Source: a virus (lineage: Duplodnaviria; Caudoviricetes). Taken from it: 64,000 nt of DNA. The stretch is from the IMG/VR virus record IMGVR_UViG_3300037067_018912, positions 32,001 to 96,000 of that record. One strand, written 5' to 3'. Under the pieces are notes generated by a model. The model saw only the letters and a program-made list of their open reading frames with translations, made no database searches and was not told the DNA's origin. Position 1 is the first letter of the stretch, and every line of letters begins with the position of its first letter. Shown one piece after another: positions 640 to 3,834 of the stretch. The position numbers and the translations under genes are program-made.

Positions 640-1168
640 ATAAATTTTGTTTTCTTTTATAGTGAACTATTTTGTATTCAGTTCCCATTTTGCTCTTTAA
701 CCATGTCATAGAATCTTCACTCAATATTTCAAAATCGTTCATCAGTTTTCCTACGGGAAAAAACTTATTTCCGTCAGGAAACAGGTTCACAACTGTGATA
801 ATCGCTTCATCACAATAATCAATCAATGCCTCATAGATACTCGCACCTCCAGCGACAAAAACCTTATCGATATGAAGGTTGTTTAAGAGCATCAACATCA
901 GGTCGATATCGCTGAATTGGTATACCTTCCTACCTTCCTTGGGTACAAAACGTTCTCCTTTATTGAGAACTATATATTCCCTACCTTCGAACGCTTTGTC
1001 GGGCAGAGTGTGATAGGTGACAGCACCTACAATCAGCATGCCTCCCATAGTGGTTTCCCGGAAGTGTTTGAAGTCCTCCAGTATCCGCCAAGGGATTTCA
1101 TTATCGATCCCGATCGTGCCATCAACGGCGACGGCAGCAATCGCAATTAGTTTGGGTTTATCAGTCAT
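614..1168 (-). CDS. folA: Dihydrofolate reductase
   Basis: IAAVAVDGTIG..NEIPW...EDFKHFRETT, GR-x-x-IVL, VAGGASIYE, GNKFFP motifs. Confidence 0.93.
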   Translation of the reverse strand: MTDKPKLIAIAAVAVDGTIGIDNEIPWRILEDFKHFRETTMGGMLIVGAVTYHTLPDKAFEGREYIVLNKGERFVPKEGRKVYQFSDIDLMLMLLNNLHIDKVFVAGGASIYEALIDYCDEAIITVVNLFPDGNKFFPVGKLMNDFEILSEDSMTWLKSKMGTEYKIVHYKRKQNLYDKQTEIQ

Positions 1169-1199
1169 TAGGGGTGTTAAAATACTATTCTTTTGTTAT

Positions 1200-1763
1200 T
1201 TATGCCAATTTTTTTCCATTTAAAAGTTCACGCAAAAATTCATTTTTCTTCCCACCAATCAATTCCAACCAATCGTTATGAATCTTATCTACCGACGAGC
1301 CGTCCAATAAAACCATAGAATTCAATTCATCGTTGGTCTTGATTTTCAGTTTGATACTATACATCGGATCGTTGCCAGGATTCACCAATTGATCGAGATA
1401 ATCAACAAAATCCGGGTAATCTTCTTTATTAAAAACCCTTTCATCCACAATAAAACACACTGCCGTAAGGGCGTTATTCAAATCGGGTTCGTTGAAATAT
1501 GCGTGTTGAATCTCATTCATCCTTAATTCGTCCGATATGGTGTTCAATGAACCCCTAAAAACAGGACTTATCGATTCATTAGTCGTACCACCATTGAGGA
1601 TAATCCACGTCTTCCAATCATCAATGAAATCGATGAATAAATCGGTTTGACCGTATTTCCTTGCATATTCCAACGCTGCATGTCCCGCTTGTATCGCTTG
1701 CTGTATCGGCGATATGTTGTAAGGCACAAAAAAATACATACGTAGTTCAAGTCTGTCTTTCAT
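1200..1763 (-). CDS. Peptidyl-tRNA hydrolase type 2 (PTH2)-like protein
   Basis: QAIQAGHAALE and FNEPDLNNALTAVCF motifs of phage PTH2-like proteins. Confidence 0.7.
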   Translation of the reverse strand: MKDRLELRMYFFVPYNISPIQQAIQAGHAALEYARKYGQTDLFIDFIDDWKTWIILNGGTTNESISPVFRGSLNTISDELRMNEIQHAYFNEPDLNNALTAVCFIVDERVFNKEDYPDFVDYLDQLVNPGNDPMYSIKLKIKTNDELNSMVLLDGSSVDKIHNDWLELIGGKKNEFLRELLNGKKLA

Positions 1764-2221: not shown

Positions 2222-2503
2222 TTAGAGGTTTTTTTCGTAATTGATAGAATCGAGGTATTCGTCCTGTGTTGCGGATGTCCAAGTGATAATGAAGAATCTT
2301 TCAGTTTCATTGTCGACGTGAACCACATAGTGGAAGGCGAAAAATTCGTTGTCATCAGTGCCGTAAATGGCATAATCGGAGTAAAGTTTGAGTGTGCCGG
2401 GAGGTATCTCGAAATCTTTCCGGATTTGAACGGCCTGTTCGTGGATGTAAACAGCCATTTGTTGAATGATTTTCTTGAGTTCTATGTTGGTTAAAGCACT
2501 CAT
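2222..2503 (-). CDS. Hypothetical protein
   Basis: ORF; GTATTTAT motif 16 nt upstream of ATG at 2503. Confidence 0.65.
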   Translation of the reverse strand: MSALTNIELKKIIQQMAVYIHEQAVQIRKDFEIPPGTLKLYSDYAIYGTDDNEFFAFHYVVHVDNETERFFIITWTSATQDEYLDSINYEKNL

Positions 2504-2764
2504 ATAAAACCACTTTAACATAAATACTTCAACAAATGCAAGAACCCTTTTCGGGAAAAATTTTTAGGCTGTTTTCCTTTATGGATCGGCAAAAATTTTT
2601 CAGGAAATTTTGCGAGGTTTTAAAAACTGGTTTTATCTTCATGAAACCAGCAAAATTAGGTTTGCGAAATCTTTCCTACCCGGTAGGGTTTCTTTTAAAG
2701 GCGTTCAGGCCAATAATGGCACGTTATCCACCGATTCAATACGAAGCCACCGTATTAACTTTCG

Positions 2765-2934
2765 TGACCGAAGCGGGGTTCGAACCCGCACCCGTTGGTT
2801 TACCTACGTGGGTTTTATCCACCGAGCATGCCACGTGCTGACTTTACTCCGCTTGCGCTGACGAGGTTCTGCGTGTACGTGACTTTGGAACGTCTCTTCT
2901 CAAGACATGGCCTTGCCTATTAGGCGATCCGGTC
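2765..2934 (-). tRNA. Atypical 170-nt tRNA-like RNA (possible Leu-GAG with 64-nt anticodon-loop insertion and branched variable arm)
   Basis: Acceptor GACCGGA/TTCGGTC+A, D arm GCCT-AATAGGCA-AGGC, T arm GCGGG-TTCGAAC-CCCGC, anticodon stem ATGTC/GGCAT enclosing 71 nt; no encoded CCA. Confidence 0.75.
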
Positions 2935-2938
2935 AAAT

Positions 2939-3238
2939 TCAATCTTTATCAATGAAATTAATATAATCCTCCAACCCCAAATCCTTTCCGCTTCCATAAA
3001 TATATCCGACGACAAAATAAATCACTTTTCCATCATTTTGTCGGACCAACGACATTAAAAAATCGGGTGCACCATCAACAAATGTTGATCCTGGTGAATA
3101 AAACAGTCCCATATGACCAACGATTTTTTCATAATTTTTCACCCAATCGAGGTTCAATAACTCCTCCCGTGTGTTGACCTCGTGTTCCGTTTCCTCGAAA
3201 CCTTCAAAAAAATTAGGAAACCTTCTTTTTATTTTCAT
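2939..3238 (-). CDS. Hypothetical protein
   Basis: Start trimmed to MKIKRRFP, giving an ATGA overlap with the upstream ORF. Confidence 0.7.
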   Translation of the reverse strand: MKIKRRFPNFFEGFEETEHEVNTREELLNLDWVKNYEKIVGHMGLFYSPGSTFVDGAPDFLMSLVRQNDGKVIYFVVGYIYGSGKDLGLEDYINFIDKD

Positions 3239-3429
3239 CGCATCCTTCTTTCTTCTTCGTCGGTTATATATCCGGTTGTGGAATTGCCCCAAAATCCGTG
3301 ACCGTGATGCTTCTCCCAATTCTCAATAGTCCCGTAACCTTGCAGGGCGTCTCCCGAATTACGGCTTTCCGGCTTCGCTTCCGGTTTTGATTCCACACCC
3401 CTTTTCAACCGCTTCTTTGACTTTTTCAT
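3235..3429 (-). CDS. Small hypothetical protein
   Basis: Tightly packed in operon. Confidence 0.55.
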   Translation of the reverse strand: MKKSKKRLKRGVESKPEAKPESRNSGDALQGYGTIENWEKHHGHGFWGNSTTGYITDEEERRMR

Positions 3430-3432
3430 ATA

Positions 3433-3834
3433 TTATAACAAATTTGTAAGATAATCTATGCAAGTATCGCCTTGTTCCATCTCCTTTTGAACCAATTCTT
3501 TGAGCCTTTTTCTCTTGTCCTTATCCATCTTCCTTGTCTTTAAGACTCGAAGCATTGAGATCAGGTTTTTCAACGGTGTAAGTTTGTTACGAATATCCGC
3601 ACCAATAGCATCACCGTCGATTATATCCAATACGACGAGTTCGAAATCATCAAAACTCCAACCCTGCATGTCATAACCCGCATACAATTCTTTGAGTTTC
3701 TCCATTGTTGCAGTTATTGGCTGCAACCTTGGGATTTCCGTCGTGTAAACCCCAAGCAGGCACATAAAACTACTATTCATCTCAATATGGACAAACTCTT
3801 TCGAACTTTTCTTTCTTAATGTCTTGAATTTCAT
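3433..3834 (-). CDS. Hypothetical protein
   Basis: ORF in operon. Confidence 0.7.
   Translation of the reverse strand: MKFKTLRKKSSKEFVHIEMNSSFMCLLGVYTTEIPRLQPITATMEKLKELYAGYDMQGWSFDDFELVVLDIIDGDAIGADIRNKLTPLKNLISMLRVLKTRKMDKDKRKRLKELVQKEMEQGDTCIDYLTNLL

Follow-up and report, generated by a model that had tools for sequence, protein, structure and literature searches.

A jumbo-phage RNA with a tRNA-shaped body and a conserved, structured domain in place of the anticodon loop

What use has a phage for a tRNA-shaped RNA whose anticodon loop has given way to a long stretch of other sequence? The question is posed by a locus on the minus strand of the 64,000-nucleotide (nt) stretch of DNA analyzed here (hereafter the window), bases 32001-96000 of the 357,275-bp viral record IMGVR_UViG_3300037067_018912, which has direct terminal repeats, is estimated to be complete and represents a jumbo phage with a G+C content of about 39%. 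A preliminary description of this DNA had placed a 170-nt tRNA-like RNA at 2765-2934 and offered two readings of it: a protein-spliced phage tRNA, or a noncoding RNA that mimics a tRNA, for example as a decoy for anticodon nucleases. The element is indeed present there, and it has six covarying homologs, counting the window's own copy. Most likely it does not read codons and its tRNA shape is a handle for another job. On balance we favor the reading that it is a non-decoding mimic descended from a class II (leucine-type) tRNA, a natural scaffold that would display a structured domain, which we call the cargo. Coordinates of all features are collected in Table 1.

Support for the structure is comparative, because the fold of the single sequence is no better than chance (minimum free energy -56.8 kcal/mol, z -1.56; 16 of 200 shuffles equally good). 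Searching with the neighboring ligase gene retrieved 28 related viral loci, in two of which nhmmer located the element, and a degenerate pattern of its core found nine viral stretches (four true, five unrelated) plus four metagenome stretches. After removal of identical copies six distinct sequences were left (the window and loci L019, L021, L035, L039 and L042), representing about four lineages. Covariance model R1 scores the window at 187 bits, the five homologs at 150-185 bits and nothing else above 36 bits. The window's own genome contains a single strong copy, as does each of the three related records that were searched whole. A blastn search of the phage collection gave no match, and an exact 25-mer search returned nothing.

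Across the six sequences the 31 proposed pairs, which make up seven helices, are 99.5% paired, and 13 of them are changed on both sides; none of 500 shuffles equaled the observed result, and controls in which the partners were slid by 1-3 columns left 30-43% of cells paired. The supported helices are the acceptor stem (four of seven pairs compensatory), the T stem (three of five), the anticodon-like stem from C26-G108 to U30-G104 and, within the insert, a 3-bp hairpin (31-33 with 50-52), the 7-bp P2 and two short helices, P3a and P3b. P2, P3a and P3b all contain compensatory changes. The anticodon stem had been drawn earlier as ATGTC (2908-2904) against GGCAT (2832-2828) around 71 nt. That stem is present, but its fifth pair, C31-G103, is C-A in three of the six homologs: G103 pairs with C54 instead (CG in three, UA in three), and C31 pairs with G52.

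Apart from the loop, the cloverleaf is complete. Acceptor, D and T arms are present together with the GG and TTCRA loops that form the elbow, and the 7-bp acceptor stem, discriminator A, D arm and TTCGAAC T loop that were first reported can all be read in the sequence. The acceptor stem (GACCGGA/TTCGGTC) has 7 bp including one G-U, the discriminator is A in five homologs and G in one, and the T loop is TTCRANY in all six. In the D stem and the variable arm the register varies among homologs, so these were read by eye and from separate folds, with no tool count. The D stem, by eye on the alignment, appears as GCC/GGC, ACT/AGT, GCG/TGC and GTG/TAC, and the variable arm, which in the window occupies a region of 38 nt, is in each homolog a single hairpin with a basal stem of 5-8 bp whose sequence differs. 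A branched variable arm with two sub-hairpins, as first proposed, does not hold up: the sub-hairpins are peculiar to this sequence, and one of them, GTGG..CCAC, competes with the conserved TGG/CCA pairing. Leucine-type (class II) ancestry was judged correctly. All the features that tRNA-handling enzymes read are kept, namely the acceptor stem, the T arm, the D-loop GG and the long variable arm.

The insert is the most constrained part of the RNA. Inside the anticodon-like stem of the window sequence lie 71 nt, and over the cargo 46 of 74 alignment columns are invariant with a mean pairwise identity of 0.82. The corresponding values for the body are 19 of 93 and 0.56, and each of the 15 sequence pairs is more alike in the insert than in the body. 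The tetraloop of P3b reads GCAA in the window and GTAA or GAAA in homologs, and this GNRA tip, together with the invariant internal loops, suggests a tertiary or protein contact. Three pairings drawn by eye within the insert as hairpins or pseudoknots (GTCTT/GAGAC, GACG/CGTC and GTTC/GAAC) are broken by the homologs. An alternative hairpin (42-55, 43-54 and 44-53) has one compensatory change but clashes with the better supported 31-53 and 55-104. No known family matched at the element when the proposed Rfam check was made: with Rfam 15 at E<=10, neither the insert alone nor the region 2500-3200 gave a match to it (six weak matches in that region, none overlapping the element), and RF00005 failed to match the element even at E<=10. 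At gathering thresholds nothing relevant appeared in the window or in 12 related loci, and the sole related Rfam matches are hits of the tRNA model to other mimics (L004, L007, L013 and L017).

There is no stable anticodon. In place of an anticodon triplet two homologs have GAG, three GTG and one GTT, and A, G and T all occur at position 37. The combination that marks a decoding tRNA, a 7-nt loop with U33, a purine at 37 and a conserved anticodon, is absent from the family. Of the two readings first offered, the tRNA mimic is the one that agrees with conserved, covarying homologs, an empty Rfam search, a triplet that is not conserved and an insert that is the best conserved part.

On its 3' side the mimic is joined to another conserved domain, with constant spacing between the two. 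We define the class by two features, a tRNA body that lacks a 7-nt anticodon loop and, at a fixed offset behind it, a 3' domain containing hairpin H1 and long-range helix H2; the window's copy has both. Up to its terminal hairpin and U run the 3' domain is conserved in the window, L021, L035 and L039, and blocks of its sequence (GGAUAACGUGCC; AGGAAAG..AAACCU; GGAUAACRUGCC) recur across relatives. A pattern built on it finds 18 viral loci and three hits in genomes, two true and one unrelated (Psychrobacter); one of the true loci lies in a prophage region of Dyadobacter sp. Leaf189 (Bacteroidota). Loci with the domain are L052-L069, L077 and L079. Among 14 distinct sequences the hairpin with loop RUGGCUN and the long-range helix comprise 12 pairs, 90.4% paired, seven of them compensatory, and none of 500 shuffles matched the covariation score. 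A T arm stands at the identical upstream distance in 13 of 16 distinct loci, and in intron mode ARAGORN puts a gene end at that spot in nine of the 16 viral loci with upstream sequence, duplicates included. The upstream partner may be a tRNA of normal length (tRNA-Gln in L053 and L079; also L077), a class B mimic as described below, or a mimic of the window's own type, class A. In the window's genome the 3' domain is single-copy. No Rfam 15 family matched it at E<=10 (searched on L017, L007 and one 3' domain), and three likenesses to consensus sequences failed by eye: AGGAAAGUCCG..AAACCUGCUUA to CR-I/CR-V of RNase P RNA, GAUAACGUGCC to the twister core, and CCUAAG to the 11-nt tetraloop receptor. 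The terminator-like hairpin drew no call in a simple terminator scan, and it was read by eye, as were the promoters discussed below. At some loci only, the terminator shares bases with an upstream helix, which hints at a terminator/antiterminator switch. Separately, the 11-mer TCGGTGGATAA (minus-strand reading) occurs twice in the window, at 2815-2825 in the part of the variable arm next to its loop and at 2724-2734 in helix H2; GGATAA recurs in L021 at both the variable arm and H2. This could be chance or a common binding site.

Relatives carry other mimics in the same place. Class B mimics, about 105 nt long (GCGTRGG...CTGCGCT), occupy the same syntenic slot or lie upstream of a class A mimic in the same noncoding operon, as in L019 and L039, where class B is the first module. 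Where a tRNA has its anticodon arm they have a covarying stem that ends in a loop of 4 nt (GGAA, GAGA, CGAA, ACAA or CAAA), so they cannot decode; their variable region contains a conserved GGTGCACC. Four further loci (L003:10047-10207, L013:8249-8378, L056 and L061) have a class A-like acceptor stem and T arm around unrelated internal sequence. L003, L056 and L061, but not L013, also have a typical tRNA-Leu D arm (GGCGAAATTGG-like), and the mimics of L056 and L061 lie upstream of the 3' domain. Because these four keep class A arms around different internal domains, the scaffold looks orthologous and the cargo exchanged. A further 5' block of about 270 nt (AGTTCTTTGAA...AGTCTTTCTG..., ending ..GGACAGAAAGATTT) follows the homolog of the 3433-3834 gene and precedes the mimic in L003, L004, L007, L013, L015, L017, L019, L021 and L039, where the noncoding operon reaches 600-1000 nt; the block is missing from the window and L035. 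After the upstream gene relatives show a TAnnTTTG box, and L066 has TTTG, 20 nt, then TATATTTG, about 25 nt before the mimic. We read this as a putative promoter of the Bacteroidota type.

If the RNA is a scaffold for its cargo, a plausible course of events can be outlined. In the window it would be transcribed by read-through from the upstream open reading frame (ORF), and in relatives from a Bacteroidota-type promoter of its own. Cleavage by RNase P would create the mimic's 5' end and an RNase Z-type enzyme would cut after the discriminator, giving a stable tRNA-shaped carrier and a separate 3' RNA of about 145 nt that ends at the terminator. The CCA end might come from the host enzyme or from the nucleotidyltransferase-domain protein that the phage itself encodes (PF01743, within a 1510-aa frame). 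By analogy with the engineered tRNA scaffold, the tRNA body would provide precise processing and nuclease resistance, and the cargo a specific activity, for example binding to a protein, to another RNA or to a small ligand. We speculate, tentatively, that the cargo has a function not seen before in an RNA of this kind, as an aptamer, as a ribozyme or as a module for binding a protein or the ribosome, and that together with the 3' domain it forms a widespread, uncatalogued two-part class through which phages connect interchangeable cargoes to the tRNA-handling machinery of the cell, possibly as a charged, tmRNA-like effector.

Several points weigh against a non-decoding scaffold. The insert begins with an invariant TTG, like U32-U33-G34 of a genuine anticodon loop, and the phage encodes RtcB (PF01139, 153 bits, a 409-aa open frame at G000 348.9-349.9 kb), which a splicing pathway could use. 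The alignment of the six was fitted to a covariance model, which favors structure, and because the six represent so few lineages the compensatory changes amount to few independent events. The high identity of the insert could also mean that it is mobile and spread recently, although compensatory changes do occur in its helices. Finally, the type of body says little, because long variable arms are found in many of the phage's ordinary tRNAs as well.

How do other explanations fare? The RNA might be a decoy or sponge for tRNA-attacking or tRNA-modifying host factors that act by way of the acceptor end or elbow, such as toxin nucleotidyltransferases, CCA-end nucleases or tRNA-directed defense nucleases, and so protect the roughly 60 tRNAs of the phage. 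The conserved acceptor, T and D features are what one would expect of a decoy, as are the heavy investment in tRNAs and repair (60 tRNA genes and a tmRNA called by ARAGORN in the rest of the genome, mainly at 249-283 kb, plus RtcB and the nucleotidyltransferase domain) and several other expanded tRNA-like genes. Yet a plain decoy needs no 74-nt domain with so many invariant columns, and nothing links the element to a defense system. Anticodon nucleases in particular are less likely targets of such a decoy, because no anticodon loop is left for them to recognize. We consider the decoy unlikely.

Quite unlikely, in our estimate, is an intron-bearing tRNA, Leu-GAG in this phage, from which a phage or host endonuclease would cut the insert of about 65-77 nt before RtcB joined the halves. 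ARAGORN makes no call in the window in default mode; in intron mode, as the preliminary description had suggested running it, it does report a tRNA-Leu(gag) whose intron measures 77 nt, the stem being closed by a GATAA stretch from the variable arm that homologs do not conserve. A normal tRNA-Leu(gag) is already encoded elsewhere in the genome (254996-255080). By eye on the alignment of the six, no bulge-helix-bulge was found at the exon-intron junctions, and none can form, because the covarying P2 (columns 55-61 with 98-104) occupies the 3' junction; an alternative TTG/CAG pairing would give a 5-nt bulge rather than a 3-nt one. The splicing endonuclease family PF01974 (EndA/Sen) has no match in the complete 357-kb record, and the control was detected in four archaea. 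Excision would not restore a functional anticodon stem-loop, because the pair that would close it (columns 31-104) is C-A in three of six homologs; columns 55-104 are CG in three and UA in three. Splicing is also argued against because the triplet shifts among GAG, GTG and GTT on one orthologous body, so that the anticodon would alternate between Leu, His and Asn, and the mimics in the same slot of relatives have 4-nt loops. In protein-spliced tRNA introns the exons are better conserved, the reverse of the pattern here. A self-splicing intron fares no better: a group I catalytic core (P3-P9) usually exceeds 200 nt, the insert measures 64-77 nt, and neither a group I model nor any other Rfam family overlaps the element at E<=10, in line with the preliminary statement that a group I or II intron would not fit into so short an insert. 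On the other side stand the invariant TTG, the presence of RtcB and the published conserved introns in tRNAs of Lak megaphages (PMC6784885) and intronic sequences in tRNAs of 262 alternative-code jumbo phage genomes (PMC13037316).

It is also conceivable, if very unlikely, that the element is a processing signal and nothing else, a form of tRNA punctuation in which the shape recruits RNase P and RNase Z to separate the mRNA from the 3' RNA and the insert has no function. The variety of partners at one constant offset from the 3' domain fits this, as does the start of the window's RNA 5 nt past a stop codon. A neutral insert, however, would not hold its invariant columns and compensatory pairs while the bodies are only 47-57% identical. 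A decayed pseudo-tRNA or a chance fold, to which the single-sequence z score and the empty default ARAGORN and Rfam searches might point, is extremely improbable, contradicted as it is by six conserved homologs in syntenic position with compensatory change in 13 of 31 pairs, the covariation check that had been proposed at the outset.

Genes around the element are tightly packed on the minus strand, and neighboring products include a NUDIX hydrolase, dihydrofolate reductase, nucleoside deoxyribosyltransferase, ATP-dependent DNA ligase, R2K ATP-grasp protein and adenylosuccinate synthetase. The upstream ORF ends just ahead of the RNA and the two are therefore probably co-transcribed in this phage. 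Its ATG start is preferred to the TTG because the tblastn matches, in L002 and L017, begin at residue 28 (they span residues 28-123 only); a pattern search of viral contigs found no relatives of this ORF, and it has no Pfam or PHROG match. The 133-aa protein encoded further upstream has invariant DIRNKL and NLL motifs and an AlphaFold model (pLDDT 84) with a beta sheet and two long helices; it has no Pfam or PHROG match, and the model has no fold match in the PDB at E<=0.001. Between its gene and ATG 3238, positions 3240-3432 (minus) are noncoding, about 190 nt rich in G+C that contain hairpins such as CCGGAAGCGAAGCCGG and have no Rfam match at gathering thresholds. Identical DNA (0 differences) occurs in long contigs of three DNA runs from three studies, each of which may be the record's source. 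In those three runs no insert-less form of the element and no joints were seen, and there are no RNA runs among the listed sequencing runs that carry this DNA.

Table 1. Positions of the tRNA-shaped RNA, its 3' domain, neighboring genes and related tRNA-like genes (window coordinates unless a locus is named).
Feature	Position	Strand	Remarks
Whole tRNA-shaped RNA (class A mimic)	2765..2934	minus	170 nt, first acceptor base to discriminator A; CCA not encoded
Acceptor stem, 5' strand	2928..2934	minus	pairs with 2766-2772; 7 pairs, 4 compensatory, 100% of cells paired
Acceptor stem, 3' strand, and discriminator A (2765)	2765..2772	minus	covariation count; homologs
D arm	2910..2925	minus	4-bp stem GCCT/AGGC, loop with GG
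Anticodon-like stem, 5' strand CATGT	2905..2909	minus	pairs with 2827-2831; 5 pairs, 100% paired, one compensatory G-C to A-U
Cargo domain	2832..2904	minus	3-bp hairpin, 7-bp P2, conserved internal loop, P3a/P3b, GNRA cap
Long variable arm	2790..2826	minus	basal stem CTCG.TGG/CCA.CGGG, 20-nt loop
T arm	2773..2789	minus	GCGGG-TTCGAAC-CCCGC; 5 pairs, 3 compensatory
Conserved 3' domain	2621..2764	minus	second half of two-part RNA; about 145 nt; alignments and covariation
Hairpin H1	2738-2756	minus	7-nt loop GUGGCUU
Long-range helix H2	2728-2733 with 2681-2686	minus	covarying
Terminator-like hairpin	2627-2650	minus	inverted repeat I2, U run next
Upstream ORF	2939..3238	minus	stops 5 nt before RNA; likely start ATG 3238, not TTG 3319
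133-aa protein gene	3433-3834	minus	upstream of RNA locus; homolog precedes element in all loci
Class B mimics	L004:9147-9252, L009:8807-8912, L015:9604-9707, L017:9099-9203, L019:8832-8937, L039:~1115-1225		
Expanded tRNA-like genes	G000:C1 159148-159281, 159775-159907 (minus), 265389-265501, 274636-274716, 294148-294353, 331879-332087 (minus)		

At least six further expanded tRNA-like genes lie elsewhere in the genome of this phage, beyond the window; they were found by ARAGORN in intron mode and by model search. Two have about 75 nt replacing the D arm, the others carry inserts of 7, 39, 107 and 121 nt in the anticodon region, and one has a CCA end. There are also suppressor-type tRNAs with anticodons tca and cta (G000:C1 159671-159745 and 282907-282981), a tRNA cluster at 249-283 kb in which many tRNAs with Gln, Lys, Cys, Asn, Thr and Trp anticodons have long variable arms, and three "Leu" tRNAs only 75 nt long. 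The tRNA identity rules or the genetic code of this phage may be unusual.

Why should such an RNA matter? The genomes of huge phages contain tRNA genes by the dozen, and since 2019 "tRNAs with introns" have figured among them without a mechanism. Our reading would mean that at least some of these genes are not pre-tRNAs but cassette-swapped carriers of structured domains that stand before a second conserved RNA. If this is true, tRNA counts of phage genomes are inflated, and phages devised the tRNA-scaffold trick for making stable structured RNAs long before laboratories did. The cargo and the 3' domain would in addition offer compact new RNA folds with good alignments.

How does the element compare with known RNAs? 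It resembles tmRNA (SsrA), which is processed by RNase P and charged independently of an anticodon, in having a tRNA-like acceptor stem and T arm and a large domain at the position of the anticodon arm. It differs in having a D stem, no conserved tag frame (by eye) and 170 nt rather than about 360, and in lacking the G3:U70 pair, pair 3-70 being C-G or U-A, as the preliminary description had correctly noted of the tmRNA features. ARAGORN calls no tmRNA at the element and finds the phage's real one elsewhere. YrlA (RF02553) shares with the element a tRNA-like module in an RNA that does not decode, and YrlA and Y RNAs occur in bacteria and phages that also carry RtcB. The topology is opposite, however: the ends of YrlA lie in the Ro-binding stem, and the ends here form the acceptor stem. 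RF02553 has no match at the element and nothing above cut-off in the genome, and no TROVE/Ro60 domain was found in the phage search. The "species 1" RNA of phage T4 (rnaC) is likewise a stable RNA on a tRNA frame with extra hairpins and no known decoding role; its hairpins are said to lie in the D loop, unlike the insert in the anticodon loop here.

GOLLD and ROOL are large, structured, phage-associated noncoding RNAs that adjoin tRNAs and are probably co-transcribed with them (PMC5737381); neither Rfam model matches the window or the 12 related loci, and sizes and conserved blocks differ. A 2023 catalog of 10,006 candidate viral RNAs (PMC10690425) includes tRNA-like ones, and the family may be listed in its supplements; a literature search, which did not extend to those supplements, found no description of this RNA family or of its 3' domain. 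Phage tRNA genes with unexplained conserved inserts are known in outline. Lak megaphages have tRNAs with "enigmatic introns" (Devoto et al. 2019, PMC6784885), and intronic tRNA sequences were reported for the 262 genomes of jumbo phages with alternative genetic codes (PMC13037316). As with those tRNAs, recognition of the gene depends on permitting an insert in the anticodon region, the sequence inserted is highly conserved, and none of the known splicing mechanisms applies. By the descriptions given in the relevant passages of these two papers, theirs are decoding tRNAs with a fixed anticodon, and those passages describe no covariation analysis of the inserts; here the triplet is not conserved, the insert helices covary and a second conserved domain is fused. 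What is new is this family with its 74-nt covarying cargo, the evidence that no part of the RNA is more constrained than the insert, the exchange of cargoes at a single syntenic position, and a two-part architecture at fixed offset, with counts.

One parallel is man-made. In the engineered "tRNA scaffold" of Ponchon and Dardel (PMC3753655) the anticodon stem-loop is the insertion site for a structured RNA, the acceptor stem and the T and D arms are kept, and, as outlined in that article, the scaffold is processed by tRNA enzymes and shields its insert. The phage element has the same architecture, and differs in being natural, in having a long variable arm and in being followed by a 3' domain. 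We infer that it may work in the same way.

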